From: an uncultured archaeon
GTDB taxonomy: Archaea; Asgardarchaeota; Thorarchaeia; Thorarchaeales; Thorarchaeaceae
Direction: 5' to 3'
Assembly (NCBI GenBank): GCA_964473825.1
Contig: CAYYQL010000004.1
Span: 32,001 to 96,000, forward strand
Length of the DNA: 64,000 bases
Below the pieces are notes generated by a model. It was not told the origin of the DNA. It saw only the letters and a program-made list of their open reading frames with translations, and did no database searches. Below, piece by piece: positions 8,374-41,025 of the stretch. Position numbers and translations under genes: made by a program. Every line of letters begins with the position of its first letter. Positions within the stretch are counted from its first letter, which is position 1.

Positions 8374-9966
8374 ATGACCAAGACCACGTTTACGTTCAAG
8401 GAACTGAAGAGAACAAATCATAGAGAGATAAAAGAACTCCAAGACAAGAAGTTCAAGGCCTTCATACGCTATCAGGTCTGGCCTAATCATCCCTATTATC
8501 GGCGTCTTTTCAAGGAGAATGATATTGATCCCTACAATATCACATGCATCGAAGACTGGGAAAAATATCAGGTTCCACTTATCAGGAAGGTTGACTATAA
8601 AGACAACCTCAGGGAGTTTGTGCTGAATCCCTCGGAGGTAGATGGTCAGGACCGCCCTCCAGCTGAGATTGTGAGGAACGTAATGGCCTATTCTAAAGCT
8701 GCAGGCTATAATGAGCAATACAAGATGCTACGGAATAATGGCATCAAGACAAAACTGAAGATTGGTGCCGAAGCAGCGAAGGAGCGAATCAAGGACCGCC
8801 TGACCTACAACTATGCACCTCTTCAGTTCTGGCTGAGTTCGGGTAGAGCATCAGGTCTTCCTGCTCCTGTGTTCCTGACGCGTCATGATAATGACCTGTT
8901 ATTCAAGAACTGTGTCAAGGTGGGTCAGATGGCTGTCGATCCTTGGGCAGCTGAAGGTTGGGAGCTTATCAGCATGAATCTGTTCCCATACGCGCCGCAT
9001 CTTGGATGGCATGCTGTGAATCTCGGTCTGAAGCAGATGTCGAAATTCTATGTCGCCACCAGTGCAGGGGGTGCTATTCCGAGCGCGAAGCTTGTAGAGA
9101 TCGCCAAGGGTTTCCATGTTAATGGCTTTGCAGGCATGCCCTCCTATCTACGAAATCGATTCTTCCGAGAGATGAAAGAAGCAGACTATGAGGCGCCAGA
9201 GAAGATAGTTCTTCTGCTTGCAGGTGAGAAGATTTACGGCCCAGTTGTCGATGATATGATAGAAACTCTTGAGAGCAAAGGCGCCAAGGAAGTTCGCGTC
9301 ATCGGTGGTTACGCCTCATCAGAGAGTAAGATATCCTTTGGAGTTCAGTGTTGCTACGATGGCCCCTACCACAACGTCAGTCCTCTGATGCTTTCATTCG
9401 AGTTTGTCAGGGTCAATGATGACGGGAGCTGGGAGTTCGTGGATGAAGATGAGTCTGGTCATGTCACGCTGTTCCATCTCGATGGCACCGGTACAATCTT
9501 CGAAGGCTTCCTCTTGGGTGATGTTGCTTCACGACACGAGAATGGTAAGTGCCCAATGTGTGGAATGGACGGCCCCTTCTTCTGGGATATCGGTCGACAG
9601 AACGATGCCCAGGCTCAGATAGAAATCATGGGCCTTAGCGAAAAGAAGGTCAAGGGTGCAACCGTCAACCTTACAGCACTGCGGAGCGATCTTCTCCAGC
9701 TAGGAGAGGTAGAAGAGATCCAAGTGGAAATTGCAAAGGAAGACATGGACGATCCATACAGCATGGATGTTCTCAATGTATATGTGGCTCCTAAGGGTTC
9801 AGCTGACGCCAACTACGATTCCTTGATTTCTGAAATCAAGCGGATCACCAAGAACTCGACAGAAGTGACTCCTAGTGTCTTCATCATGCCATTTGAGCAG
9901 TTGATGGAGAAGGCTGGTGGGATGAAGTTCATGGAGATATCCGATGTTCGGCCTAAGCCGGCCTAA
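8374..9966 (+). CDS. Phenylacetate-CoA ligase / coenzyme F390 synthetase-like adenylate-forming enzyme
   Basis: HPYYRRLF, SSGRASGLP (A3-like loop), AGEK, GYASSE, GD and KVKG; GGAGG RBS before ATG 8374. Confidence 0.8.
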   Translation: MTKTTFTFKELKRTNHREIKELQDKKFKAFIRYQVWPNHPYYRRLFKENDIDPYNITCIEDWEKYQVPLIRKVDYKDNLREFVLNPSEVDGQDRPPAEIVRNVMAYSKAAGYNEQYKMLRNNGIKTKLKIGAEAAKERIKDRLTYNYAPLQFWLSSGRASGLPAPVFLTRHDNDLLFKNCVKVGQMAVDPWAAEGWELISMNLFPYAPHLGWHAVNLGLKQMSKFYVATSAGGAIPSAKLVEIAKGFHVNGFAGMPSYLRNRFFREMKEADYEAPEKIVLLLAGEKIYGPVVDDMIETLESKGAKEVRVIGGYASSESKISFGVQCCYDGPYHNVSPLMLSFEFVRVNDDGSWEFVDEDESGHVTLFHLDGTGTIFEGFLLGDVASRHENGKCPMCGMDGPFFWDIGRQNDAQAQIEIMGLSEKKVKGATVNLTALRSDLLQLGEVEEIQVEIAKEDMDDPYSMDVLNVYVAPKGSADANYDSLISEIKRITKNSTEVTPSVFIMPFEQLMEKAGGMKFMEISDVRPKPA

Positions 9967-22031: not shown

Positions 22032-22583
22032 GTGAAGCTGATCACTCTCGCCCGGGAGGCAGTTAGGATACTGAAGGAGAGTGGGGATGATGGTATTCGT
22101 AGCGACGAGGTCGCTGAATTTCTTGATGTCCCCAAGAGACGAATCTATGATGTTGTGGCTGTGCTAAGAGCATTGGAAACGGTCTCAACGACACGCAAGT
22201 TCGATGGTACGACTATCACATGGATTGATCGTTTCGAAGACTACATTCCTCGAAGTGAATATGATGCTGTTCGAAAGCAGCTGGATGAGGTCCTTGCTGC
22301 GAAACGAGAACTTCAAGTTCAGGTTGCCGAACAGAAACAACAACTCAGAAACATACGTGGCAGATTCAAGCATGATGGGGTGCCTGTCGAGAAGACCGAC
22401 AAGACCCAGTTCAATACCACTCAGCTCCGTGTGCGATGCCACTCGGGAACTGGTTTCAAGAGAGTGGTGGATTCAGGGGTGGAAGTACTCATTGAGACTG
22501 AGCAACCCGGCATGACTGTGGATCCGACTGAAACGGAATATGATGACAGTCGTGAGATACTGAGAAGCATACAGAAGATGTGA
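22032..22583 (+). CDS. E2F/DP-family winged-helix transcription factor with coiled coil and beta-rich C-terminus
   Basis: LITLAREAVRILKESGDDGI...EVAEFLDVPKRRIYDVVAVLRAL...TITW matches the E2F/DP RRxYD recognition helix; heptad repeat follows. Confidence 0.8.
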   Translation: MKLITLAREAVRILKESGDDGIRSDEVAEFLDVPKRRIYDVVAVLRALETVSTTRKFDGTTITWIDRFEDYIPRSEYDAVRKQLDEVLAAKRELQVQVAEQKQQLRNIRGRFKHDGVPVEKTDKTQFNTTQLRVRCHSGTGFKRVVDSGVEVLIETEQPGMTVDPTETEYDDSREILRSIQKM

Positions 22584-22961: not shown

Positions 22962-23039
22962 GATTCCACCAAAGGTGATACCAGGAATCCGCTATTAAAA
23001 CTCTCCCCATTCTCTTCTGAAAATGCTTAATTGGTGCTC

Positions 23040-24197
23040 ATGGAGTATACTAGTAGGAGTGATTCGAGGCTGCCACTAACACGTCTAGAAGTTGCATTTG
23101 TTGTTGACACGACCGGGTCCATGAAAGACGACATCAACGCGGTGCGCGACAGTCTGTTCGACATCGTCGATGACATCGTCAAGAAGACTTCGGAACTGGA
23201 GATTCGCTTTGCCGTAGTATCGTACAGGGATCATCCTCCTGAGGATAGGACCTATGTGACTGATGTCTTCGATTTCACTGACAATGTGAAGGACATTCAC
23301 CGCCGTATAGGCCGACTGAATCCGTCCGAGGGAGGCGACACTCCCGAAGCTGTTGCCGATGGCCTCGCCGATGCGAGAAGACGGCTTAGCTGGTCGCGTG
23401 ACGCCTACAAGATCTTGCTGTTGGTCGGTGATGCCCCCCCTCACGGAAGAAATTACAATACTCTAGGGGACGACCATTGGCCGGATGGTTGTCCTGAAGG
23501 CTTGGATCCAAGGGATGAGGTCAGAAAGATGAAGCGTGAGCACGGAACGAGTTTCTTCCTGTTTGCCTGTGGATGCAATCCGTTGGTTGAAGACTCATTC
23601 AGATCTATAGCCGAATCCATTAAGGGTGGGAAATACTACTCTCTGGTGGAGGCTCACCAACTGCCCATAGCTATCCTTGAGATTCTAGAGGGTGTGAGTG
23701 ATCTTATCGAGGGCGATAGACGAGTACTTGACATCTACAGAGCTAATGATGGTTCCTTTGATATCGCTGAGGCGGCCGCCCAACTCGGAATGGAACTGAG
23801 AGAGATGAAGACCTCATTGTCGCGTCTGCTGGAACTGGGTAAGATCTCACGGTGGCCAAGAGGTCGTCCTTTGAGTCATGATCGCCTTGGAGTTGAGGTG
23901 GTCCTTGGAGATATTCCTTCGGCCATTCTTCCAGGAAGGGCCTTCAATTACGAGATCCGTGCGAAGAATCCTAGCAGAACCACCGTGGGGATACGAATAG
24001 TCATATCTCTGGTTACCTCCGAAGGTGTCTCTGAGGTCACAAATGAGAACCATGACATTGCACCGCGAAGTGACAGGATTCTCAAGCTGCGCTTGACCCC
24101 CATGGTGGACGTCCCTGGAAAGGCGACAATCGGTGTTGAAGTTCTTCATGGCTCTATGTCAATAGAAACAGCAACATATCCTGTAAGGATTCACTGA
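23040..24197 (+). CDS. vWA domain (intact MIDAS) + winged HTH + C-terminal Ig-like domain
   Basis: AFVVDTTGSM, YRDHPP, GGDTPEAV and VGDAPPH; FDIAEAAAQLG...SLSRLLELGKI; beta-sandwich-like tail. Confidence 0.85.
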   Translation: MEYTSRSDSRLPLTRLEVAFVVDTTGSMKDDINAVRDSLFDIVDDIVKKTSELEIRFAVVSYRDHPPEDRTYVTDVFDFTDNVKDIHRRIGRLNPSEGGDTPEAVADGLADARRRLSWSRDAYKILLLVGDAPPHGRNYNTLGDDHWPDGCPEGLDPRDEVRKMKREHGTSFFLFACGCNPLVEDSFRSIAESIKGGKYYSLVEAHQLPIAILEILEGVSDLIEGDRRVLDIYRANDGSFDIAEAAAQLGMELREMKTSLSRLLELGKISRWPRGRPLSHDRLGVEVVLGDIPSAILPGRAFNYEIRAKNPSRTTVGIRIVISLVTSEGVSEVTNENHDIAPRSDRILKLRLTPMVDVPGKATIGVEVLHGSMSIETATYPVRIH

Positions 24198-24199
24198 GG

Positions 24200-25369
24200 G
24201 TGGGAGAACTGGAGATGCAGGCAATCCGAGGGAAGGACCAAAGAGGAATATCATTTGTCAGGCCAGAAGACTGGCTGTCAGATGATAAGGTCGCCAGTAT
24301 CTCCTGTCAAGGTCGCACCGTCTACACCGACATCAGAACGGCCCAGGCAGTACCCTTAGGCCATATCGTGATTGACTCCAAGTTATATGACAGCCTCTCG
24401 TGTTCAGGCAAAGATGGAGTCGAGGTCATCCCAGAGAGTATAGCGCCATCGGTCTGCAAGACTCTCACGATTGAAGTTCAGTCTCTTGCTGGAATAGGCA
24501 GCCGCAGGGTCAAAGAGGCAGTTTCCGAACGAATCCGCGACTTCGGTCCACATCTTGATGACCTCCTAGTCACAGAGGGTCAACAACTCAATCTACAGTC
24601 ACTCAATCTTCGTCTCACAGTTCTGGGTCTCTCCCTGTTTGATTCGCGCGGCACGATTGGACGAATCAGATGGCCTCGCTTGGAAAAGATTGAACTAGTT
24701 GGGGGCGAGACTCCCGATATGTGCGCATTTGTGATTCTGGTTGAAATGTCGCGCATCAGAGGTCTCCAGGATGAGGATGATGCTGCACAGTCTGGTGCGT
24801 GGGCCTCCACTCCGTTCTCTGAGATCTTGATACGTCTTCTTGCAGGTCTGAGAGCATTCTCTGCATCAAATCCAACCAACGTCGTTGTGTCAGTGATTGC
24901 ATATTCTTCTCAGACAGATATCTTCTTGACATACGAGCCGGATTCTGGACAGAAACGAAAATGGTCCGAGATTGATATGGAAGGTTATCTTGAAGCCCTG
25001 CAGAACTGGCTTGCAGACCAAAAGGGCATTCATGATTCGCAGCCTTCTGATCCAGGACTGGCACTGCAGACAGGTTTTGCCGTCGTAGATGAGATGAGAG
25101 ATGATGGTCTGTACCCCGTCTGTATCGCGCTGCTCTCAACAGGTCGGTATTCGATAGGACAGAATCCTGTTTCTGTGGTGCGTCGACAACCCGGTAATAT
25201 CACCACGTTTTCGCTCGGGCTTGAATCTGCATCTGATGAAGATATGCTCAAGGCGATTTCAGAAGCTGGACGGGGGAGAGCAATCATGATGTCTAGGATA
25301 ACTGACATGCAATTGATGGTTGAGGACATGATTCAGATGATGGGGCGTGAGGTGGCTGCAGATGACTGA
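24200..25369 (+). CDS. Cdc48-N/Ufd1-like domain + degenerate vWA
   Basis: N-terminal half aligns with the 31082 gene (...GHIVIDSKLYDSLSCSGKDGVEV...LDDLLVTEGQQL); vWA with EMSR in place of DxSxS, SDPGLAL, LLSTG and DEDMLKAISEAGRG. Confidence 0.7.
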   Translation: MGELEMQAIRGKDQRGISFVRPEDWLSDDKVASISCQGRTVYTDIRTAQAVPLGHIVIDSKLYDSLSCSGKDGVEVIPESIAPSVCKTLTIEVQSLAGIGSRRVKEAVSERIRDFGPHLDDLLVTEGQQLNLQSLNLRLTVLGLSLFDSRGTIGRIRWPRLEKIELVGGETPDMCAFVILVEMSRIRGLQDEDDAAQSGAWASTPFSEILIRLLAGLRAFSASNPTNVVVSVIAYSSQTDIFLTYEPDSGQKRKWSEIDMEGYLEALQNWLADQKGIHDSQPSDPGLALQTGFAVVDEMRDDGLYPVCIALLSTGRYSIGQNPVSVVRRQPGNITTFSLGLESASDEDMLKAISEAGRGRAIMMSRITDMQLMVEDMIQMMGREVAADD

Positions 25370-26561
25370 AGAATTCATAGAACTGCTTCAGACCATGCAG
25401 TCCAATGGCACACTTGAAGGGTTCCTCTGCTCCCAGATTCCAAGCGGCAGACTATCCTCTGGATGGATTGAGAACGGTCTTTTGTTCACGAGTATGGAGA
25501 CTTCACTTCGTTCAGAAGCAGTCACAACCACGTACATGATTCCAGCAGACCGATTTGTACGGTTCTTCAAGCAGCTGGATTCCTCGGCCAAATCGAGCAT
25601 ATGCTTCAGCATCACGGGCCCGGCCGGTCTTCGAGAGGAGAAATCGCTCGTGTTGGTTGGCGAGGTATGTCAATCAGGATCCCCCCAAGTTCTGGCAGCC
25701 AGATTCTCTTCGTCGACTGCCACAGAGATATGTCAATTCATTGCTTCTCAACTGCTGCGCATACCATCGGATGAGGATCACTGTGAGCCTTGTTTAGATT
25801 ATCTGGAAGAACTCAGAGAGTTGGTGTTGAGCGAGGAGACCAGTGCGGCCTTGTGCCTGAGCATCCCCAAAGCAACCACACTCGTAAGAGAGGTATTCTC
25901 GCAGGATTCTGATCAAGAGTCCATTGAAGGGATTCTACTGCGTTTGGGTCAGATATCTCAGCTTCAATCGTTTGCAACCAAGGCTGTCACTTGGCTTGAC
26001 CGAACAAAGAAGTTCCAGGGCCAATCGAGCGAGGCGGCAGCAATTGTGTTACGAACGTCTCACCGACTCCTCCTCTGTCTGTGGGACGGACCAAGAGGCG
26101 TAGTCTCTTTCGCTGACATGACAGGTATGTCTCTTGAGAAAATGTCAGTTTCGTTGCTCCTTCCCCTTTGGATTGTTAAAGGTGAGACGATGGATCTTCA
26201 GGACTATGCCCCTCGTGTTCTCATTGATAAAGAAAATGAGGGCATCAAATCTGGGGAAAGGGATGCGACCCCTATACGGCGCGTCGAGAGTTTCGAAACC
26301 ATATCTCAAGAACTTGCTGCCTTAGAAAGTCGTTTGAACAGTGTTTCCCTTAGAGACCTCAGCAAGAGAGTGATGGATTTGGAGGATCGGTTTGATAGTA
26401 TCAAAAGGTTTACACAGAATGCTTCGTCTGATGAGAAGCGAATCAGTGCTGCTTATTCGAATATCGATGACCTTATATCTCGTCTGGAAAAAATATCTGG
26501 GCGGCTTGATAAGATAGCAGACGACCTCGAGATAGTCAGCGATCGACTGAAGGAGGAATGA
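25362..26561 (+). CDS. Hypothetical protein: two alpha/beta (roadblock/profilin-like?) domains plus C-terminal coiled coil
   Basis: Translationally coupled (ATGACTGA overlap, GAGGTG RBS); heptads in the last ~90 aa. Confidence 0.7.
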   Translation: MTEEFIELLQTMQSNGTLEGFLCSQIPSGRLSSGWIENGLLFTSMETSLRSEAVTTTYMIPADRFVRFFKQLDSSAKSSICFSITGPAGLREEKSLVLVGEVCQSGSPQVLAARFSSSTATEICQFIASQLLRIPSDEDHCEPCLDYLEELRELVLSEETSAALCLSIPKATTLVREVFSQDSDQESIEGILLRLGQISQLQSFATKAVTWLDRTKKFQGQSSEAAAIVLRTSHRLLLCLWDGPRGVVSFADMTGMSLEKMSVSLLLPLWIVKGETMDLQDYAPRVLIDKENEGIKSGERDATPIRRVESFETISQELAALESRLNSVSLRDLSKRVMDLEDRFDSIKRFTQNASSDEKRISAAYSNIDDLISRLEKISGRLDKIADDLEIVSDRLKEE

Positions 26562-26839
26562 CATACTTGTCGGGTTTAGAGGATCAATTGGAGCAGCTCC
26601 GAACGAAGCTGATGATGATTGAGTCTCTCGGCAACCGGATTAAGGACCTCGAAAGACATCTTGGGCCGATCGAGAATACCAGGGCTGAGAACCAGAGTGA
26701 TGATGTATACGAGTCAAGAATCTGGCGAGAACTTGATGAGCTACGTGGGTTTGTCGAAAGGCTATCTATTGCAGTCACTCAACTTGAATCTGAAGTTCAG
26801 ACGATGGCTTTGTCTACAAGTCATCTTGAAGATGATTGA
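26558..26839 (+). CDS. Small two-segment coiled-coil protein
   Basis: ATGA overlap with the upstream stop, GGAGG RBS, heptad pattern. Confidence 0.7.
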   Translation: MTYLSGLEDQLEQLRTKLMMIESLGNRIKDLERHLGPIENTRAENQSDDVYESRIWRELDELRGFVERLSIAVTQLESEVQTMALSTSHLEDD

Positions 26840-29445
26840 CCCCTGTCTAAACGGCGAAGAGCACTTGCTAACTCCTCTACCAGTTTCTGGACTGAGAGTG
26901 CATCCAGACTCACCGTACTTCTGTTCGCTGTCCTTGGCGAGTCAACGGAGCTCCGTGTTTCGAGTCTTAGAAGTTCAAAGCATTGGCTAGGAAGCACATC
27001 GATGAATCCCTGAGCCGCGTCATCTGAAGTGTCCCCTGAATCTCCGATGAGAATTGCCAGTGTCGGGCGCGACATACCAAAGTCATCTGTGTATTCGCCA
27101 ATCGCCCGATACGAGTTGGCAATTGCCTGGTCAGATTTCTCCTCTTGTAGGGCATCAAGTACGAATAGCTTCAGCGCGGTCTTCACCTCAGGGGACTCCA
27201 AATCTCTGTCAAAGTCGACGAAATCCTGAATGTCTTGGCCGTGTTGAATAGAGAACTTCCTCAGCCGCTCTCCGGCTATGCAGAGACCTAACCTTCCCTC
27301 TGACCTGTTCTCCTCTAATGATCCAAGGATGAGCAGTGCCGATACTACAGCTCCTTGGAAACGAGATGTATACGCTTCCGAAATGTCGAGAAGATCTGAG
27401 TAGCTTCCTAACCCCTGAAGGATGTCTTTGAGTTTCAAGGAAACAGAATATGGAGCCTCTATCCTCAAATCCTTGACAGTCATCTGTCTACTGAGCGCGA
27501 TACAGATTATGACATCAACATCCAGAAGGAATTCAGGCTGTGTGACAACTATTTCTGCCTTTGTCAAATCTGCCGTTTCGCCTGTCTTTATGGGGGGGTT
27601 CGTTCTGATCAGCTCAAGCGACAGACTTTCCCGAGTTGTAAACGGGTACACCTTACTGCCCCTTCCCAGAAGAAGCGGTCGGATAGTTTCTTCTGTCTGG
27701 TTTGATTGCAGATGAAGATATGACGACATCTCTCCTGGATCTACATTTTCTTGCGCTCTTGTGACGAAGATAGCTCTGTCAACCTTGGTTATGTTCTCCT
27801 GATATTCGGTTAGATCTATCTCCTCGCCAGACTCCAGACCGAGGCCTCTTCGATCGTCATCGGAGATAACTGCTGTTCTAGGTGCTATATCATGGCCCGG
27901 CAGACTTCTTGCCACCCACCATTGCCCCTTTCTCTGACTCTGGGCCAGAAGATTGTCTGCTGTCCTGCCAAGCGCGTCGATGTTCACATCAGCAAGACGC
28001 AGATATCCGCGCGGTACATCGCCGGTATCGAGTCGATATCTCAATGCAGCCAGTAGCTCCTGTGGTCTTCTAACGTTGAGGCATTTGGTCAGAGCGGTAA
28101 CATACGCGTTGAGTTGAATTGGCGAATCAAACACGATTGACGAAGTTCTAGAGTGCGATTTCACGAGGGTTCTCAAAGCGTTCGGGTCTTCAGAAACATC
28201 CGCCACATCAAACCGAGGACTCCAGGTGCAGATCTCAAGGCTACTGTTCGGATTCTCTCTTACAATCAGTGTTGTCCCACTCTTTGCCTGTTCATCCAAG
28301 AGCGTAAGGACATAGGTTGAGGTGTCAACTGTCCCTGATTCTTCATCATACAAGTAGTTGAACGATTCGAGTCTGTAATCTCTGCTAGAGGTGAGTATCT
28401 TAATCACTCTCTGCAGTTCTTGCATGGCAGGCCTACCTAGATGCCCTTCTGCAACTACACCCCCCTCTCGATCTTGGTATTTGAGATGTGGCGGTCTGAG
28501 TGGGATAACGGACAGAATGTTTCCGCTGAGCATTCGCTGGATGTCTTCTGGTGATGCATCGAGGTTCTTGCTCAGAAGATAGCTGAGTATCTCAGGTATT
28601 CCATCCCCCACGTTGGTCTCAGGGTAGTTCGTTCCAAATATTATGCGTTCAGACCAGCGGTTTCCGAGCTTCGTTTTCAGGGCTCTAATCAGTGAAGAGA
28701 GAGAAACAATGGTTGCCCCTGCTGTCAATATACGTGAATTGGGGATCTCAACAAGTTTTTCGATTTTATCAGCCCACTTCTTATGGTCGAGAACGTGAAG
28801 GATTACTGCTGGAGTTCCCAGCTTGGCGTCTTTCAGGAGGATGAGCCACTTCAGAACCTCATCCAGTTCATCAGACTCATCGAGTTGGATGAGTATTGCC
28901 CTTCCCCTCTTAACTAGACGAAGAATGTCGTTCCGGTATGCACCCTCCATCGTCTGCGCGATTTCGTTTGCTCTAACTGAGCTAGTGAAGCCCTCCTGCG
29001 ATCCTCTCTCCCTGGTCTCTTGAATTCTGAAGAATCGTCCTCCGTATTGGCCGTCTCTCGTTAGTTCTCTCACCATTCTTGAACTCTTCTCTTGGTTCCT
29101 CCTTGATAGATCCAGACCTCCAACGCTAAGAAGTGGTTTGACGGAGAACTGATCGACAAACCATTCGGTATCTCGTGCTCCAGCTGGTCCTCCGCACAGG
29201 CGAGCCAAGAAAGGTGGTTTCTTGAGATGGGCATAGGCCCTTCGAGGTAGATAACGGTACGAATGCTTGTAGTTGGCAACCAAGGAAAGAAGCTGTCCCT
29301 CCACTCGCGACACGTATGCAAGAGCTCTGTCAGGGTCGAAAGTCTTCTCGTGGCTGTTGAGGCTGACTACACCGAGCTGCATACAACCATCTACGACAAG
29401 GAACCGATAGATCTCTCTTGTCTTGAGGTCTTCAACAACCAGCAT
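26821..29445 (-). CDS. Degenerate amidohydrolase + linker domain + Cdc48-N-like + degenerate vWA fusion
   Basis: Colinear similarity to 29591-31078 (RWSERIIFGTNYP...YLLSKNLDASPEDIQRMLSGNI) and to 31082-32440 (DVIICIALSRQMTVKDL...SRFQGAVVSALL); metal ligands lost. Confidence 0.8.
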   Translation of the reverse strand: MLVVEDLKTREIYRFLVVDGCMQLGVVSLNSHEKTFDPDRALAYVSRVEGQLLSLVANYKHSYRYLPRRAYAHLKKPPFLARLCGGPAGARDTEWFVDQFSVKPLLSVGGLDLSRRNQEKSSRMVRELTRDGQYGGRFFRIQETRERGSQEGFTSSVRANEIAQTMEGAYRNDILRLVKRGRAILIQLDESDELDEVLKWLILLKDAKLGTPAVILHVLDHKKWADKIEKLVEIPNSRILTAGATIVSLSSLIRALKTKLGNRWSERIIFGTNYPETNVGDGIPEILSYLLSKNLDASPEDIQRMLSGNILSVIPLRPPHLKYQDREGGVVAEGHLGRPAMQELQRVIKILTSSRDYRLESFNYLYDEESGTVDTSTYVLTLLDEQAKSGTTLIVRENPNSSLEICTWSPRFDVADVSEDPNALRTLVKSHSRTSSIVFDSPIQLNAYVTALTKCLNVRRPQELLAALRYRLDTGDVPRGYLRLADVNIDALGRTADNLLAQSQRKGQWWVARSLPGHDIAPRTAVISDDDRRGLGLESGEEIDLTEYQENITKVDRAIFVTRAQENVDPGEMSSYLHLQSNQTEETIRPLLLGRGSKVYPFTTRESLSLELIRTNPPIKTGETADLTKAEIVVTQPEFLLDVDVIICIALSRQMTVKDLRIEAPYSVSLKLKDILQGLGSYSDLLDISEAYTSRFQGAVVSALLILGSLEENRSEGRLGLCIAGERLRKFSIQHGQDIQDFVDFDRDLESPEVKTALKLFVLDALQEEKSDQAIANSYRAIGEYTDDFGMSRPTLAILIGDSGDTSDDAAQGFIDVLPSQCFELLRLETRSSVDSPRTANRSTVSLDALSVQKLVEELASALRRLDRGQSSSR

Positions 29446-29590
29446 TAATCGTTCCCTCTTATCACTACGTATTTACTCTGGGCTCTACAGATATATGCAT
29501 AATGCGGGTGTTTAAGGAGCAATTCTTTGGAACGTACAGTAACAGTTTATGAGGGTCATCTACGTGCATCTCTACGGAGAGAAACTATCG

Positions 29591-31078
29591 ATGCTCATCG
29601 TCCGAGCTGTAGAGAATATCCCAGAACATGGTATCAAGCGAGACGACGAGTTCTCTTTGTATATAGTCGATTCTCACCATCATATGGGCCGCGAAGGTGG
29701 CCATCAGAACACCCCTTCTTCTGCCTACGAATTCTACACGTTGCTCTGGTTTGAACTGAAGAGCGCCGCTGAGAAGTACATGGATGCTGACTCTCTTCTT
29801 TTCGAACCGGTTGGCACAACACCTGTTCCTCTGACAGAGCAAGTACTCCAGGCAAGGGAATCTTGGTCATCTATGGGCCATGGTTGGCTTGTGGACCGAA
29901 CCGTCGTGTTTCCCTTTACTGATGACTACGCCAAATCAGGAGTGCCCGATTCTCCATCGTTCAGTGTATCTAATAACAAGATCTCGGGTTGGACCAGCCG
30001 TGCTCCACATTCTAGTCGTCTCATCGGCTTCGGCAGAGTCGACCCCACTGATGCTAGATATGGGAAACCCAACATCGCGGTGAGCGAGATCGAACGATGC
30101 CGAGATGTGCTAGGCCTTAGAGGTCTCAAACTACATCCACTTGCCCAGTTGTTTGTTGAGGAGATTGAGAATGAATCGACACGGGAAGTTGTTATGCGTG
30201 CTACCGAACTCTTCATGCCCATAGTTTTCGACACAAGGAATTCTAAGACTGTTGAACGAATCATGCGTCTAACTGAGGATATCATATCGACAGAGAAAGT
30301 GGGGATTCCCACAGTCATACTGGCTCATTGTGGGATGAGTCCCGGGAGTGAGTTTCTCTACGACGCCCTGTCAAGAACGTCTCTTTACGGTGACACATCA
30401 TCGCTACATGGAAATGATGTACCGGTGCTCTTCGAGACTGCCCACGAGCGGATCAAGTCTGATGCCTTCCGATGGTCTGAGAAGCTTCTATTTGGAACTG
30501 ATTATAGTTTCTTGACTACACAGGCGATAGATGTCATATTGTACCTCCTATCGAGAGACTTTCCCGGCACTCCAGCTGATATTCAAAGGATTCTCGGCGG
30601 CAACATCATGGGAGTCATCAACAGACCGTATCACACTAGGCATTACAGCAAAACTAAGCCTCGTCATCTCATCTCGACGAACTACCAGACGTCTCGTGAT
30701 GTAATCCAGAGGGCTTTGTGCAAGCAGCTGTCTGATGGTGATGTTGAGCTTCTGTCCATTGACTATATGATTCCACCCAAGCATACCTGGCCTGATATAC
30801 CAACGTCTAAGATGGGAAATGGGTTTCATCTCGACAACCTCTTCATCACCGTGCGTGCTGCATCGTCTGATGCTGTGATACACATCTGGTTGCGTCGTCT
30901 CCCTGATGATACAATGAGTCTTGCGTTAATAGACAGTGGGAGTGAACTCTCACCACGGACTCTTGAACTATCATCAGAAACAATGCCTCTGGCGCTAGAA
31001 GAGTGGCTCTTCGAGAAAGTTGAGAGGGCTAATGAGCATCAAGAATTGAACTCCCTCCTAGAACAGGCTCTTGCATAG
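29591..31078 (+). CDS. Amidohydrolase_2-family metal-dependent hydrolase with C-terminal extra domain
   Basis: VDSHHHMG, FGRVDP, GLRGLKLHP, ILAHCG and LLFGTDY. Confidence 0.85.
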   Translation: MLIVRAVENIPEHGIKRDDEFSLYIVDSHHHMGREGGHQNTPSSAYEFYTLLWFELKSAAEKYMDADSLLFEPVGTTPVPLTEQVLQARESWSSMGHGWLVDRTVVFPFTDDYAKSGVPDSPSFSVSNNKISGWTSRAPHSSRLIGFGRVDPTDARYGKPNIAVSEIERCRDVLGLRGLKLHPLAQLFVEEIENESTREVVMRATELFMPIVFDTRNSKTVERIMRLTEDIISTEKVGIPTVILAHCGMSPGSEFLYDALSRTSLYGDTSSLHGNDVPVLFETAHERIKSDAFRWSEKLLFGTDYSFLTTQAIDVILYLLSRDFPGTPADIQRILGGNIMGVINRPYHTRHYSKTKPRHLISTNYQTSRDVIQRALCKQLSDGDVELLSIDYMIPPKHTWPDIPTSKMGNGFHLDNLFITVRAASSDAVIHIWLRRLPDDTMSLALIDSGSELSPRTLELSSETMPLALEEWLFEKVERANEHQELNSLLEQALA

Positions 31079-31081
31079 AGA

Positions 31082-32440
31082 TTGATGCCACCACTCTTTA
31101 TAACGACACAGGCACTATTCAAGACGAATTCGACTTTGGAGGCCGCAGCAATAACGAGAAAAATCGAAGTTGAGATTCTGGACGGTGGTAATCAAAGAGG
31201 CTTTGCCCTGCTGAATCCAGAAACCATGAAACAGTTGGATGCTGAGATTGGTTCAATAGTCCTGTTTGAAGATCCTCAGAGCAGTTTCTGGGGAGCAGCT
31301 GAGGTTAGAAAGAATGAGGATCTGGATGAAGGGAAGATAGAGGTCGACACTCTTGTCTTGGAGGCATCTCTCTTGATGGAAGGAGATTTGGTCGATCTAC
31401 AACTCTATGATGAAGATATGATCGCGCTAGAATACGTCGAGTTCGGGCTCAAACCCTTGACCGAGGATGCAAACACTGATGACCTTGTTTCTCGAGCATC
31501 TAAGAGGGTGAAGAGTCTAGAGCAGTTGGTGGGTGGGCGTCTCGTATATCCGGGAATGTCGTTTAGCTGGCCTGAAATGGAAGTTAAAGTTGAGATTCTG
31601 AAGACTCGTCCCTCATTAACAGGCAAGAATTTCGCAAAGCTCGCCTTTGAGGCTCTGAGAGAGAAGACTGGCTACCAATTCAAGACCGTTGGCATTGCTA
31701 GCCCATTCAATGCTATTCTCTGCATTGACACAAGTGGGTCAATGAAGACAACTGATGTACCCGTTCAGGACATAGCTCATGCAAGAGAGGGTCTGAAAGA
31801 TTTGGCTGGTGATAATCCAGAGGTCCATAGTTTTCTGAACCGCTTCGATGAAGGAGCCAGAGTGAGCCGGGCTGAGGCGGCAGCAATGGCTGTCTTGCTG
31901 TATCTGGCAGAGAAAGTTGGGCGAGGTTACGGTGAGAAGGTGGGAGTCATCACGTTCGAAAAAGAAGTGAGCGAGATGACCTTCCTTGACTCCGAGACTG
32001 GTGCCGTGAAACCATATGTTGAATGCACGGGTCGGGAGAAGGCTCTAGGGTTGCAGATAATCAGCACCCACGTTGTAGACAAAGTAGAGGAGGGTGGCAC
32101 GCTTACTGACATGGGAACCGCACTGCTCAAGACACGAGAAATCCTCGATGCATTTGGAGATGAGTCTAAACCCGCCATGTTGATTATGCTCACTGATGGA
32201 ATGACGACAGCTGGGTCTCCTCCTCTGAAGGTGCTGAAGGAGCATTTTCCCAACAGAGATAGACTGGTGATTTACTGCATTGGTTTAGGCGAGAGAAGTG
32301 AGATTGATGAGGAGCTGATGCTGGCCATGGCTCAATACGGTAACGGCACATATCGCCATGTTGACAACATGAGGGATCTTCTAGAGTGGTATGGAAGGCT
32401 TGCTAGTGAGTTCGCAGTGGTGATACGAGGACGCGACTAA
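31082..32440 (+). CDS. Cdc48-N/Ufd1-like domain + vWA with intact MIDAS
   Basis: RGFALLNPETMKQLDAEIGSIV (double-psi barrel as in Cdc48/VAT-N), GGRLVYPG...VEILKTRP; ILCIDTSGSM, TDMGTAL, MLTDG and IYCIGLG; start probably ~31136-31151. Confidence 0.8.
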   Translation: MMPPLFITTQALFKTNSTLEAAAITRKIEVEILDGGNQRGFALLNPETMKQLDAEIGSIVLFEDPQSSFWGAAEVRKNEDLDEGKIEVDTLVLEASLLMEGDLVDLQLYDEDMIALEYVEFGLKPLTEDANTDDLVSRASKRVKSLEQLVGGRLVYPGMSFSWPEMEVKVEILKTRPSLTGKNFAKLAFEALREKTGYQFKTVGIASPFNAILCIDTSGSMKTTDVPVQDIAHAREGLKDLAGDNPEVHSFLNRFDEGARVSRAEAAAMAVLLYLAEKVGRGYGEKVGVITFEKEVSEMTFLDSETGAVKPYVECTGREKALGLQIISTHVVDKVEEGGTLTDMGTALLKTREILDAFGDESKPAMLIMLTDGMTTAGSPPLKVLKEHFPNRDRLVIYCIGLGERSEIDEELMLAMAQYGNGTYRHVDNMRDLLEWYGRLASEFAVVIRGRD

Positions 32441-32441
32441 G

Positions 32442-33623
32442 TCATTCATGACTCATGGCGTCAGCGAGCCCCCTGAGGCTTTCCTCATCCATTTCTCTTA
32501 TCTGGTCCTCAGGGAGGCCTGCGAGTACATCTTCTGGTATGCTTCTGAGGAGTTTTGCCTTTTTCCTGCCGTATTTCTGAACCAGTTCGTCGCTTTCTTC
32601 TTCCTTGCTTGACTTGACCAGTTCCTGAAGCTCGTCCCTAGTCAGCTTCGCTATTGCTGCATCCGTCATTGACTCTTTGACATCATCTGGTAGTTCAGAA
32701 ATCAGCTTGTCTTTTTCATCTTGATCTTCTGCCTCTTCAGCAGAGCCCACCAAAGCTTCTAGTTCCTCGATGCTCAAATCATTCAGAGTTTCTTCCGGTA
32801 CAGAATCGAGAACTTCCTTCGGTATCTTTGCAAGTAGTTGCTTTCGAGTGGGTCCTTTTCTAACACGCTTGACCCTCTTGACCTTGCGAACCTTTACTTT
32901 CTTTTTCGCTGGCTTCTTTTTCGCCTTCTCATCTGATGGCTCTTGTAGAGAGTCTACCAGCTCTCTTGCAGTCTTGGCTGTGAGCCGTCGGATATCTTCT
33001 ATCGGCAGGGATTCTCTCACGTCACTCGGCAGTTCTGATAGAATCTCCTCTACTTCAGGGTCAAGTGAGGGGCCCTTTTTCCGAGATGGTGATTCAAGAT
33101 CATCCTTCTTCTCTTCTAGGATGATTGGAGTTTCCATATCCTCAATGAACTCCTCAACATCGACCTCGATGTCGAATTCCTCCTTTCTCCATCTCATGTA
33201 TTGATCTATGGCCTTGGGTCGAACCTTCAACGAGAGAAGATACGTACGAATCTCGTCTTCCAACATTTCGGGAAAGTCGGCCATGACCCTCTCGATGTCC
33301 TCTTCGGGAAGTCGCGCCCATATCGGGCCACTTACAAGCTTGGATAGCCCGGCGGCACAATGAGAACGCACCCAAGTGTTCTCGTCCTTGAGTCCTTTGA
33401 GAAGGTCGGGGATTGTCTTGGGCTGATGATACCATGCCAGCGTCTGAGCAGCTGCTATCCGTACGTCTACTTCGTCATCATCAAGTGATTTTGCTATCTC
33501 GTCCACTATGTTGGGGTCATTCATATCTGCCGCGGCCAGCAGTGCTCTCTCTCGTATTGTCTCTGATGGATCCGAGAATGCCTTGACAAGAGCATTTCTC
33601 ACTCTCTTGTCCTCCCGTGCCAT
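32442..33623 (-). CDS. HEAT-repeat protein with four C-terminal ~33-aa helical repeats and a Lys-rich patch
   Basis: D.SETIRERA, D.EVDVRIAAA and D.NTWVRSHCA HEAT repeats; repeats of (L/I)PxDV/(I)PKEV; KKKPAKKKVKVRKVKRVKRVRK; start set at MAREDK. Confidence 0.85.
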   Translation of the reverse strand: MAREDKRVRNALVKAFSDPSETIRERALLAAADMNDPNIVDEIAKSLDDDEVDVRIAAAQTLAWYHQPKTIPDLLKGLKDENTWVRSHCAAGLSKLVSGPIWARLPEEDIERVMADFPEMLEDEIRTYLLSLKVRPKAIDQYMRWRKEEFDIEVDVEEFIEDMETPIILEEKKDDLESPSRKKGPSLDPEVEEILSELPSDVRESLPIEDIRRLTAKTARELVDSLQEPSDEKAKKKPAKKKVKVRKVKRVKRVRKGPTRKQLLAKIPKEVLDSVPEETLNDLSIEELEALVGSAEEAEDQDEKDKLISELPDDVKESMTDAAIAKLTRDELQELVKSSKEEESDELVQKYGRKKAKLLRSIPEDVLAGLPEDQIREMDEESLRGLADAMSHE

Positions 33624-33846
33624 TCTACCCACTTTTTCGGTTTCAAACTCCAACAGCAACCGACGTGTTTCCGACAATCGAGCTCTCTCCTGACGATACT
33701 CTGTCTTCCTATAGGTAATATACATAGTGGCTCTCTATAGTCTAACGTAATCAATTCTTGACAGATACTTAAATCACTTGGCTGAATGTATCTATATACA
33801 CCCGATATAATCCTGGTGTTACGCACCACACAAGATTTAGGAGGGA

Positions 33847-36886: not shown

Positions 36887-39800
36887 TTAGTAGACTGTGA
36901 ATTGCTTCTTTTCAACTTCGAAGGCTCTTGATGGAAGCTGTCTTCCATACTGTGACATAACAACATCGAGGTAGAAGTTCGTAATAACATCAACAGGCGG
37001 GGTCGTCCAATCAATCTCTGTATGGAGTATTCCGTCGTTTAATGTGTCAAAGGGGATATGAAACTCAGCAGAAAGATCTCGCCGAGTCATAATTCTCAAG
37101 GAAATGTGAAGCTTGTCAAGATCAAGACTTCTTGAGATGATTTCTACGGCTATCTTCACAGGTGTTACACGGGGAACTAACCCGGGTATCGGTCTACCCC
37201 TTTCATCCCTCACATCGAGTTTGACCATGAAGACTGGATTATCGATAGCCTTCACTTTGAACTGTTTCTTGTGTGATGACTTGGAGTCTGCATAGTTAAG
37301 ATCAACTATCAGATGGGCTGTACTCATCTCCGCCGATATTGGTACCCTGAATTCCACGGGCAACAGGCTGAATCTATCTGGTTCCAAGAGAACCTCACGG
37401 GTCATCAATGGCTCTATTCCCACAACGGTTTCCAGCTTCACACTAACTTCAGCCCGCTCTGGATTCTCTGTCTGATTAATCAGGTGAATCACAGACGATA
37501 CCTTCTGATCTGGTTTCACAAAACTTGGAATCCCACTGAACGAGACTAGTGTTCTGGCCAAGGTTCTCTCCTTAAGCATAACGAACGCGCTTCGTCGGTC
37601 CAGAAGCATACCACCATATAGTATCTCTGCGATTATTTCGACTTGATTGCTTTCCGAGGCATCAGGCTCCGGGATTTCAAGGGGGCCAAAGGCAAGTGAC
37701 AGGTTTCTGGCTTGATTGACTGGCTGTTCGATTGCTAGAATGGGTTCAGACTCACTATAATTGAACCACAGCTTCAGTGTAGCCGGCTCGCCTTCTTCCA
37801 CGTTTCTGCGGATTCTTAACCATCCGCTGATCTCCTCACCAACTCTGGCTTGTTCTGGAATGCGGAGTGAGTCAATATTCATCAATACTCCTTGGTCACT
37901 AACCATGAATCGTTCTGATTCGGTGACAGAGACTTCTCGTGAGTCCTCCCAGAGAGTTGCTCTAATGACTCCGCTTCTAGCCTGGGGTGAACCTTCAAGC
38001 GCGGGAACTCGCCAATGAATTACCGCCGGTCTTTCCAAGGCATTTGACATTGAAGATGATTCGATCCTATGATTCTGTCCGGAATCTGCCACGAAGCTCA
38101 CATCAAGCTTTGCATCATCGAGTTTCTTTGTCCCCTGTGTTGTCATACTGAGCTCAATAGGGACTGTGTCTCCGGGATGTACTACCGTGCCAATGGTGGT
38201 GCTGAGTGAAATATGAACTGGTCTTCCAGTGAAGCCTACATAGAACGGCTTTGAGATATTTGAAGATATTCGCGTTCCTTGTCTGTCATCGATGGTCATC
38301 CTAAGACGACACCTTTCCACACCCTCTAATGCATCTGCGGGTATTATCAGGGGTGAAAAGTCGCTGCTGTGTAACAGAAGGATACCACTTCCACCCAGGA
38401 CCATCCTCTTTTGTGTTTGAGTAAGACTCATCTCCTTGGCAGGGGCGATAACTTCAATCGTCGAATCAATCTCAATAGGCGCAGGATAGTTGGTTTCGAT
38501 TTCTCCCTCAAAAAAGACCGGAGCTTTTCCGTCTGCGAATTGCGTGGTTGTTGTAGGTCGTAGGCTTGCTTTAACCCAATATGTATTGAGAGTCGCTGAT
38601 ACTGGGATTTCTCTTCCTGCCACTCCGACGTTGGCTATGACATTGTACGCAGTAATTCCTGGCCTCGTCTTGAAGGATACATCGATGATGTGGACCTCCC
38701 CGCTTTCTATCCTCGTTATAGGGTGTATATTTTGTGCGACGAGGTTCCTGTCAGAGTCTTCGACAGAATAGTTCACCCCAATCCCCGCAATCTCATGTTC
38801 GGATGAGTTCATCACGGTGATCTTGAACTCCGCCTCTTGACCTGCAAACACTCTGTCTCTGCCTACGACTATCTCAGGTTCGATGCCTTTCCACCAACAA
38901 AGCCATGTCGGGAGCTTGGGCATCCCCTCTAGTGGATCATATAGCCAGTTTGTACAGCATTCTCTCGTTATCTCGGCCAGCTTCTTGAGGAGAACAACCA
39001 TGTTGTTGTCGGACTGGGCGAAGACATCAAGCTGGAAATCAGCACCTGTTGTCTTGTTGGCAGTTGTTTCACTTCCAAAGACAGTGACAAAGAGTGGTTG
39101 CATGAATGGGTTGTCTATTAGTCCAAGTTCTTCGATTTCATCTCTGATGAGATAGAGCATCGATACTACTGCATCACCAATGAAACGGTTTCTCTTTGAG
39201 GAGTGCAGACGGCCTGATTCATCAATCTGTCTGTTATATACATCGATGAACTCGTTCGAGTCCTCGGATTCGGAAGTGTGAAAGGGTCCCCACATGCCAG
39301 CAACCACCGCGTTCTCACGATTGGCTGAGAGGCAGTCAGGCCCCACATCAGGAATCTCTACACCTCTTTCCACCATCCTCTTGGCCTTCAGTGCTAAGGC
39401 CTGCAGTAGCAACGCTATACCCACTCGCCGAGGAATCGAGAGTTGGGTGTCGAAGACTCGGAGTTCAATGGTATTATAGTCAGTAAACGGATACATGTCA
39501 ACCATGCGGGCAAAAGACCGGTTTACGTGCTTTGCAAATGCATCTTTGTCCGGTGTTCTCAGGTAGGGTATGAATTCGAACTGACTAGTTGGACCCAGCT
39601 GTGTGGTGTTCTTCAGAAGCCGAATTGACCTCTTGCATTTAGGAGCTCTCGTGTTACCCTCATCATCTAACTCAACCACATCTGTGGGCATCTTATTCTC
39701 GAAAGGCGAGTTTACTGACAGGGCGATCAGATGCGGAATGAAATTCCTAATCATATTGTACACGCCTATCTTCACATCAGGTGAAACCTCTGGACCAAGG

Positions 39801-40315
39801 ATGTGATGATGTTCTCCGAATGAGAGATTCTTCAGGTACTCTTGAGTGGGATTGAGGCCCGTGGAGACCATTATTGCCTGAGTGTCAGGTGGAATCGAAT
39901 CATAAGAGACCGCTATGAGCGTCTGTATCCACCAGGCGAGTTCTTCGATAGTTGTACAAGGCGGTGTGGCTATCTCTAGTATCCACGTGATTGAAGTGAC
40001 ATTGGGGTCATGGCCTATGAGGGTATAGTCCTTTACGATTCCGTTTGGTGCTTCATAGCTGGCAACAATTCTTGACCCCCTTTCGCCCTCTTCTGTCTGA
40101 GTTGACTGTTTGTACTTTCTCTTAACCGAAGCAATCTGAGCTGACTGAATTCGTTTGTCCAGGGTTCCTTTTGCACGGGACACCACTCTGTCGAAAACAC
40201 TAAGGATTTCTTCTCCCTGAATCCAGCTCCCATCGCGTTTTATGACCTGTAGCTCGACCTCAATTCCGTGGGGAAATGGAAGTTCCGTTTCTTCTTTCAT
40301 CATGGATGATTCCAT
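36887..40315 (-). CDS. Glutamate-cysteine ligase (GCS2)-fold carboxylate-amine ligase fused to multiple Ig-like domains
   Basis: GIEVELQV, LEIATPP, GLNP, GEHHHI, ALSVNSPF and TIELRVFD in the first ~470 aa; ~670 aa of beta-sandwich-type repeats follow; no signal peptide. Confidence 0.8.
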   Translation of the reverse strand: MESSMMKEETELPFPHGIEVELQVIKRDGSWIQGEEILSVFDRVVSRAKGTLDKRIQSAQIASVKRKYKQSTQTEEGERGSRIVASYEAPNGIVKDYTLIGHDPNVTSITWILEIATPPCTTIEELAWWIQTLIAVSYDSIPPDTQAIMVSTGLNPTQEYLKNLSFGEHHHILGPEVSPDVKIGVYNMIRNFIPHLIALSVNSPFENKMPTDVVELDDEGNTRAPKCKRSIRLLKNTTQLGPTSQFEFIPYLRTPDKDAFAKHVNRSFARMVDMYPFTDYNTIELRVFDTQLSIPRRVGIALLLQALALKAKRMVERGVEIPDVGPDCLSANRENAVVAGMWGPFHTSESEDSNEFIDVYNRQIDESGRLHSSKRNRFIGDAVVSMLYLIRDEIEELGLIDNPFMQPLFVTVFGSETTANKTTGADFQLDVFAQSDNNMVVLLKKLAEITRECCTNWLYDPLEGMPKLPTWLCWWKGIEPEIVVGRDRVFAGQEAEFKITVMNSSEHEIAGIGVNYSVEDSDRNLVAQNIHPITRIESGEVHIIDVSFKTRPGITAYNVIANVGVAGREIPVSATLNTYWVKASLRPTTTTQFADGKAPVFFEGEIETNYPAPIEIDSTIEVIAPAKEMSLTQTQKRMVLGGSGILLLHSSDFSPLIIPADALEGVERCRLRMTIDDRQGTRISSNISKPFYVGFTGRPVHISLSTTIGTVVHPGDTVPIELSMTTQGTKKLDDAKLDVSFVADSGQNHRIESSSMSNALERPAVIHWRVPALEGSPQARSGVIRATLWEDSREVSVTESERFMVSDQGVLMNIDSLRIPEQARVGEEISGWLRIRRNVEEGEPATLKLWFNYSESEPILAIEQPVNQARNLSLAFGPLEIPEPDASESNQVEIIAEILYGGMLLDRRSAFVMLKERTLARTLVSFSGIPSFVKPDQKVSSVIHLINQTENPERAEVSVKLETVVGIEPLMTREVLLEPDRFSLLPVEFRVPISAEMSTAHLIVDLNYADSKSSHKKQFKVKAIDNPVFMVKLDVRDERGRPIPGLVPRVTPVKIAVEIISRSLDLDKLHISLRIMTRRDLSAEFHIPFDTLNDGILHTEIDWTTPPVDVITNFYLDVVMSQYGRQLPSRAFEVEKKQFTVY

Positions 40316-41025
40316 CTGCCCACCCCGAGTTTGAACATCGCTGAAATCATTCCAGTCAGAATCTCTTCTTTGTATGTATATCGCAGGGGCAATGTAGCCT
40401 CCAAGACCATCTCTAAATTGGACATGTTCATTACCGAGATTAGGTCATGGGTGAGTCTACCTCCTCCATAGAGCCCCGCGTCCTTGTAGACTGTGACTCC
40501 GATTTCCTCTAGCTTTGAAGTTATGTCTTTCATCAAGTCGTCCGTGATGTGAATGTACCGCTCGCCAACAACTATGGATTCCGCATTCCCCATTGCATCA
40601 ATGCTGTGCGACCATGTAAGAACAGCAATCCTGCATTTCCTCGCTTCTCCTAGGATTGACTTTGCAGTGTAGGGAATTCTTGTGATGCTGTTTGATAATC
40701 CATCTCTCTGATTGACAAGGATGAGTGATGGAAATCCCGTGGACTTTTGCCGAATTCGTGTCAGGGCATCCCAAAGCGGGTCTGGTTGGGCTCTTGCAAG
40801 AACACAGATGAGCGAGTCTGATTTGCCTGCCTGGAAAGATCCCTCGTCATCGAGTCTCTTGGCTTGAGCATGGCTTTCTAGTTTGCGGACCAGTGTGCGA
40901 ATATGTGCGACTCTCTGGGTAAGACCTTGTGTGATGCTTAAGACCTCTGAAATTTTCTCACTGATGTTCCTGGGCTTCGGGGAGTTCATTGCAATCCTAC
41001 CAGTAGAAACTGTCACATCCATCAC
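40300..41025 (-). CDS. Divergent N-formylglutamate amidohydrolase-like (Zn-exopeptidase fold) protein
   Basis: VLTWSHS...IVVG...LEEIGVTV...YGGGRLT...LEATLPLR resembles the FGase pattern (D.HS, I.LG, PF.GG.IT, Q.EI); overlaps the ligase start. Confidence 0.5.
   Translation of the reverse strand: MMDVTVSTGRIAMNSPKPRNISEKISEVLSITQGLTQRVAHIRTLVRKLESHAQAKRLDDEGSFQAGKSDSLICVLARAQPDPLWDALTRIRQKSTGFPSLILVNQRDGLSNSITRIPYTAKSILGEARKCRIAVLTWSHSIDAMGNAESIVVGERYIHITDDLMKDITSKLEEIGVTVYKDAGLYGGGRLTHDLISVMNMSNLEMVLEATLPLRYTYKEEILTGMISAMFKLGVGRWNHP

Follow-up and report, generated by a model that had tools for sequence, protein, structure and literature searches.

An ancient fused paralogue of a neighbouring amidohydrolase and Cdc48N-vWA protein in Asgard archaea, with loss of both the catalytic and the MIDAS motifs

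Here we have analysed a divergent gene group in a 64,000-nucleotide stretch of DNA from an uncultured Thorarchaeon (contig CAYYQL010000004.1, positions 32,001 to 96,000; hereafter the window), whose genome (G000; Thorarchaeota, Asgard) spans 3.27 Mb at 95.7% completeness. On the minus strand, a single frame at 26821-29445 encodes a protein of 874 amino acids, here called F. Across a divergent spacer (29446-29590), the plus strand carries A, an active-looking Amidohydro_2 metal hydrolase (Pfam PF04909) with a C-terminal extension domain (29591-31078), followed by V (31082-32440; 452 amino acids; Pfam VWA_2), which joins a Cdc48N domain to a vWA domain with an intact metal ion-dependent adhesion site (MIDAS). 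Further along, the minus strand encodes L (36887-40315; 1142 amino acids), a GCS2/YbdK-type carboxylate-amine ligase with beta-rich repeats. F itself divides into a catalytically dead amidohydrolase (beta/alpha)8 barrel (residues 1-320; 28486-29445, minus strand), an alpha/beta middle domain (residues 321-468; 28042-28485) that shares ancestry with the extension domain of A, a Cdc48/p97 N-domain-like module (residues 469-634; 27544-28041) and a vWA fold with no functional MIDAS (residues 635-874 plus stop; 26821-27543). The original prediction, made from the sequence alone, held that F is an inactivated, mirror-image copy of the two genes that it faces across 145 bp. That spacer length is correct if A starts at ATG 29591, the MLVVRA-type start common to all A orthologues; an alternative upstream ATG (29549) falls inside one of two conserved TATA-like boxes. 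These boxes (gatatatgc at 29490-29498 and cagtttatga at 29543-29552) recur across genera, in most of 19 orthologous F/A spacers, and are probably back-to-back TATA elements of divergent promoters. A TATA-like motif is likewise conserved at the A/V junction (tttataa, 31097-31103 in the window), and the true start of V is likely TTG 31136, downstream of it; residues 1-24 of V are disordered in its structure model.

Profile-profile comparison bears out the proposal that F is an in-order copy of A plus V: hhalign places F residues 1-406 on A residues 1-450 (probability 98.9%, E 1.3e-17) and F residues 469-872 on V residues 27-452 (probability 99.4%, E 8.9e-22), and every one of the motif pairs originally quoted sits in aligned columns. 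By BLASTP, F 263-326 matches A 308-368 with 41% identity over 64 residues (E 9e-12), and A aligns over ~420 residues to F orthologues of other genera. F against V alone is marginal (22% over 296 residues, E 0.043); V matches the F orthologue of G021, the best among those from other genera, at E 1.4e-19. In Pfam terms, A passes Amidohydro_2 at 35.5 bits (cut-off 26.4) and F falls below it at 14.7 bits, while V reaches 34.6 bits for VWA_2 and a sub-threshold 17.3 bits for CDC48_N (cut-off 35.1). An NCBIfam search of F and A returned no matches, and the F and A profiles matched nothing useful by sequence among solved structures. An AlphaFold2 model of F, built on a 70-row alignment, presents four domains in a single folded body (predicted local distance difference test, pLDDT, 87.2; predicted template modelling score, pTM, 0.73), with a (beta/alpha)8 barrel at the N-terminus and a vWA Rossmann-like fold at the C-terminus. 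The middle domain, modelled at pLDDT mostly 84-93, consists of a helix, four strands and then further helices. With Foldseek, the N-domain-like module of F matches the p97 N domain (4kdl_A) at a template modelling (TM) score on the target of 0.59, and that of V at 0.71.

The two parents and the fused copy part ways at their functional sites, as surveyed in 25 F, 25 A and 25 V sequences, with distant Asgard families included for A. The metal site of A is invariant in 25/25, comprising DxHxH, the KLHP and AHxG histidines and the FGTD aspartate (by number His182, His246 and Asp304). All 25 F sequences carry variable residues at the four canonical positions, with no single conserved alternative. 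Likewise, the residues of the MIDAS (DxSxS, Thr, Asp) do not vary among the 25 V sequences, and none of the 25 F sequences has all of them. The loss of HxH, LHP, the catalytic Asp and DxSxS, originally read from one sequence, was therefore seen throughout the F set, with the same motifs intact in all of the A and V sequences. A Jordarchaeial F form (P0231, 889 amino acids) retains HxH and D-x-S and has lost the rest, as would be expected if the sites decayed step by step once the genes had fused. F thus combines clear homology to an active enzyme family with purifying selection and wide conservation, and its residues mark it as a putative pseudoenzyme, predicted to lack catalytic activity.

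Two outcomes that the original prediction had named as counting against it, strain-specificity and neutral evolution, are both contradicted by the data. F is intact in 62 species-level Thorarchaeota genomes of the genome collection, and the ratio of nonsynonymous to synonymous substitution rates (dN/dS; Nei-Gojobori, G000 against its congener G002, dS about 0.26-0.40) is 0.20 for F, indicating purifying selection, as compared to 0.115 for A and 0.06 for V. The frame had also been described as intact yet highly diverged, and it is: ~875 codons stay open in dozens of species, at 25-34% identity across the family. V, by comparison, keeps 75-97% identity across the family. Constraint within F is uneven. 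The barrel averages 39% identity to other genera, with 15% of columns at least 90% conserved, versus 21-26% identity and 3-5% of such columns in the other three domains; the corresponding column share is 24% for A and 54% for V. The dead barrel is thus the most constrained part of F. Among ~59 invariant columns, the F-specific ones concentrate after strands 1, 7 and 8, and include a YPETxxGD loop after strand 8 that follows the former catalytic Asp position; the invariant polar residues of the barrel are D19, R68, Y71, D98, R137, Y274, E276, D281 and E285. In barrels of this kind, the loops after the strands form the catalytic face. As placed by sequence and predicted secondary structure, the conserved residues of F would lie on its former catalytic face.

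F is also old. Besides being present in 22 of the 24 sampled genomes of the host family, it occurs in another family of that order (G025), in family f7 (G030 and G040, 847-848 amino acids) and in family f6 (G029, an 846-amino-acid frame), so that F-type proteins span four sampled families (f1, f2, f6, f7) together with the Jordarchaeia. In maximum-likelihood trees, a single branch splits all A from all F N-terminal halves (Shimodaira-Hasegawa-like approximate likelihood ratio test, SH-aLRT, 99), and another splits V from the F C-terminal halves (SH-aLRT 100), which fits one duplication predating the divergence of these lineages. An A-family profile search over 1.84 billion representative proteins returned 66 strong clusters (E < 1e-30), all of at most 650 amino acids, with no active fused A-V form among them. 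The long matches in that search were F-type only, which confines the fused architecture to the dead lineage. Every A-family member whose name was looked up comes from Asgard, and the homologues carry the names Thorarchaeota or Promethearchaeota. We propose that an ancestral Asgard pair of A and V was duplicated once, and that in one copy the two genes would have fused and lost both the metal site and the MIDAS. Together, these data firmly support F as an old paralogue of A and V in which two pseudo-domains are fused and maintained by selection. Among the papers searched, none describes this family or module.

The mirror arrangement, in which A-V lie immediately upstream of F and on the other strand, is present in 52 of the 54 Thorarchaeota loci with enough flanking sequence. 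In families f6 and f7, F instead shares a strand with A-V and is 5-11 kb away from them; the mirror image is hence a Thorarchaeial arrangement and not necessarily the original one. Of the proposed ancient inverted duplication, the age stands, given the single-branch splits and the broad Asgard spread, while the inverted layout proves to be a feature of the Thorarchaeia (f1, f2). Wherever A and V were found, they are neighbours in a constant order, with the exception of G032, in which they lie ~40 kb apart on one contig. F was not found in G032, although A, V and L are all present there; its V (L034, 1733-3901) runs to 722 amino acids, with an extra N-terminal region of ~300. Both this adjacency and the single folded body modelled for F agree with the Rosetta-stone reasoning of the original prediction, and the fusion offers a ready hypothesis, namely that A and V act as one unit.

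F can nonetheless persist on its own. In G006, G012 and G017 (95-98% complete), an intact F sits directly beside a HEAT-repeat gene, with no A or V. In G041 (chromosome CP070658.1, L116), an intact F adjoins a remnant of A limited to its first 73 codons (9634-9852), and the final 70 codons of V are found 1.5 Mb off (G041:C1:2070710-2070919), which suggests that A-V were lost by deletion or rearrangement and F was left untouched. Since F stays intact without A-V, it is not merely their obligate partner and must do something for which they are not required. The terminal branches of F in G006, G012 and G017 are among the longest, above all for the C-terminal half (G012 1.75, G017 1.14 and G006 1.06), and F in G006 evolves at twice the rate of that in its sister G021, which suggests, from a small sample, some relaxation on F in lineages without A-V.

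L extends the module beyond A and V. It pairs an N-terminal GCS2/YbdK domain of ~480 amino acids with ~660 amino acids of beta-rich repeats; its profile aligns to E. coli YbdK (1r8g) in three collinear blocks (E 2.7e-12), Pfam GCS2 matches 15 of 15 L members (best 8.9e-11), and the GCS2/YbdK profile match covers the catalytic blocks. Across the 41 genomes searched, L and A-V are either both present or both missing, the sole exception being a diverged L in G006. L adjoins A-V in families f6, f7 and f9, and the two A-V pairs of G030 each have their own L. Sequence and co-occurrence thus identify L as a third, presumably active, member of the A-V module. A gene of 241 amino acids that overlaps the start of L (36887-41025) has no Pfam family match; in G030, a 248-amino-acid gene in the same position shows marginal similarity to it (E 0.048).

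The whole has the look of a modification system not described before, one that includes its own pseudoenzyme. We infer the chemistry of L and A, and the binding role of F. L would make an amide bond of isopeptide or gamma-glutamyl type at the expense of ATP, A would remove the bond that L makes, and V may serve as an adaptor whose MIDAS and Cdc48N domains contact the target. Selection would have kept F as a non-catalytic binder in this pathway; it would most likely bind via the surface of the dead barrel that once formed the active site, at the YPETxxGD loop, and could keep hold of the same ligand, or of a partner in common, without cleaving it, as a reader, protector or regulator. The pairing of L and A as ligase and hydrolase is plausible, and to the reading as a whole, in which L ligates, A reverses, V adapts and the dead barrel of F holds a ligand or partner, we assign a probability of roughly 50%. 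Against it, many enzymes of the PF04909 type are lactonases or decarboxylases and not amide hydrolases; F is intact in four genomes (G006, G012, G017 and G041) that have lost A and V or keep only remnants of them; and in the three of these searched for L, it is missing (G012 and G017) or diverged (G006).

Those four genomes also bear on a tighter coupling, whereby F would be an obligate structural or allosteric subunit in a pseudo-symmetric complex, its dead barrel set against A and its dead vWA domain against V, as in heterodimers of active and inactive paralogues. Heteromers of an enzyme and its dead paralogue are common (e.g., Rpn11-Rpn8), and the conserved back-to-back promoter boxes, the mirror synteny in nearly all Thorarchaeota loci, the long C-terminal-half branches in the three genomes without A-V and the doubled rate in G006 would all agree with such dependence. 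An obligate subunit should not, however, outlast its partners in four genomes, sit 5-11 kb away in a non-divergent layout in f6 and f7, or be missing from G032 in the presence of A, V and L, and we regard this explanation as unlikely. The survival of F after the loss of A and V is in keeping with neofunctionalisation, in which F would have become an independent scaffold or regulator outside the chemistry of L and A, possibly a DEPDC5/Iml1-like platform with the barrel used only for protein interaction. DEPDC5/Iml1 provides the top Foldseek matches for both the F C-terminal half and V, and NPRL2-like longin proteins are reported in Thorarchaeota (bioRxiv 10.1101/2020.10.19.343400). This possibility is unlikely too, in light of the tight A-V linkage in the 52 Thorarchaeota loci and in G025, the strongest constraint falling on the barrel rather than on the DEPDC5-like half, and the lack in F of the SHEN, DEP and C-terminal domains of DEPDC5.

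It is very unlikely that F has remained an enzyme by assembling a new active site, independent of metal, out of the invariant polar residues listed above. The superfamily does include metal-independent members (e.g., LigI), and the barrel of F does hold many F-specific invariant polar residues; against this, the four canonical positions are variable rather than swapped for one conserved residue, and the dN/dS of F exceeds that of A. A decaying pseudogene or annotation artefact, which the fast evolution of F and its low identity across the family might have suggested, can be given virtually no credence: the conservation data refute it, with a frame intact in dozens of species, dN/dS well below neutrality, the set of invariant columns and a confident structure model. 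We retain binding by F within the L-A-V pathway as the preferred reading.

Several neighbouring genes were considered alongside this module. Convergent with F lies a four-gene operon (23031-26839) that is syntenic in most of the family. It encodes w388, a vWA protein of 388 amino acids with an intact MIDAS; w389 (24200-25369, plus strand; 389 amino acids), a further paralogue of the Cdc48N-vWA-like kind, the third and a separate one, whose MIDAS is degenerate; and coiled-coil proteins of 404 and 93 amino acids. The relationship of w389 to V is seen with the V-family profile (E 4.7e-5) and BLASTP (E 4e-4), along with a weak Pfam VWA match. No w388 orthologue was found in five genomes lacking A-V, and one coiled-coil protein of the G030 cluster gives a weak DUF7310 match, as does one from the window operon. 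A winged-helix protein of the E2F/DP type (22032-22583; Pfam E 1e-9) is regularly found near the cluster and still lies beside F in genomes that have lost the vWA operon. The HEAT-repeat gene on the other side (32442-33725) stays in genomes lacking F or A-V and is probably not a member of the system. We additionally considered read-through between A and V, which lie in the same frame with one TAG between them (31076-31078) in genera g1, g9 and g13, with in-frame junctions also at L009, L010, L017, L020 and L021, all six using TAG. Read-through was rejected, and the pattern is probably due to chance: 12 of the 17 junctions either break the frame or hold extra stops, a TATA-like box lies between the genes, and no Pyl machinery was found in G000 (95.7% complete), with no PylB match above the cut-off and no PylS match.

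When set against known systems, each part of the module has recognizable relatives. Within Amidohydro_2 (PF04909; COG3618/COG2159; e.g., 4dlf, 3cjp and the LigI-like 4i6k), F stands apart in having no metal ligands at all, and A and F both bear an additional alpha/beta domain after the barrel. By comparison with vWA/MIDAS domains such as those of CMG2, Rpn10, TFIIH p44/Ssl1 and NorD, the MIDAS of F is predicted to be non-functional; no MoxR-type AAA+ partner was seen among the cluster genes scanned with Pfam. Cdc48, p97 and VAT share with V and F a two-lobed N-domain fold ahead of an alpha/beta domain, with the TM scores on p97 N given above, whereas here there is no AAA+ ATPase and the next domain is vWA rather than D1. 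With Foldseek, V and the F C-terminal half each match the NTD-SABA portion of DEPDC5/Iml1 (GATOR1/SEACIT) best, ahead of p97 N-D1. For V (structure model pLDDT 83), the match to DEPDC5 has E 1.6e-12 over ~430 columns at a root-mean-square deviation (rmsd) of ~11 Å, versus 15-20 Å for p97 N-D1. The DEPDC5/Iml1 matches as a set range from E 1e-10 to 1e-12 with TM of only 0.16-0.33 and 12-13% identity, and p97 N-D1 scores nearly as well. DEPDC5/Iml1 also has SHEN, DEP and C-terminal domains that V lacks, while V has an intact MIDAS; neither F nor V has a DEP or IML1 Pfam match, and V ends after its vWA domain. On the structure models, the likeness is one of fold and architecture only, and V and the F C-terminal half may be archaeal Cdc48N-vWA relatives of the DEPDC5 N-terminal half. 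The report of NPRL2-like longin proteins in Thorarchaeota cited above mentions no DEPDC5 homologue. A bolder extension, which we consider a long shot, is that L, A, V, F and the neighbouring vWA paralogues form an Asgard-specific system of reversible protein or peptide tagging, with F as the tag reader and its Cdc48N-vWA half as an archaeal forerunner of the N-terminal half of DEPDC5/Iml1.

For the proposed chemistry, the closest functional analogy is with PafA and Dop, a protein-tag ligase and a hydrolase that are among the ligases of the GS/GCS2 fold (PMC2588565). L and A would resemble them in the genomic coupling of a hydrolase to an enzyme of the carboxylate-amine-ligase fold. Unlike Dop, A is a TIM-barrel amidohydrolase and no paralogue of the ligase, and neither a Pup-like tag nor a proteasome linkage was identified for L-A-V. 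F would also point to an undescribed three-part module of ligase, hydrolase and MIDAS adaptor, one that comes with natural experimental contrasts between active and dead forms, fused and split forms, and lineages with and without A-V. Pseudoenzymes that regulate active paralogues are well known in eukaryotes, and Asgard lineages are the closest known relatives of eukaryotes. F, conserved across Asgard lineages, adds a clean and very old archaeal case of unusual origin, in which two neighbours were copied and fused and both of their sites killed. Rpn11-Rpn8 and CSN5-CSN6 are pairs of active and inactive paralogues, and they share with A and F an active metallohydrolase next to a conserved dead paralogue under selection; the dead copy here differs in being a fusion of two neighbouring genes and in outliving its active counterpart A in some lineages.

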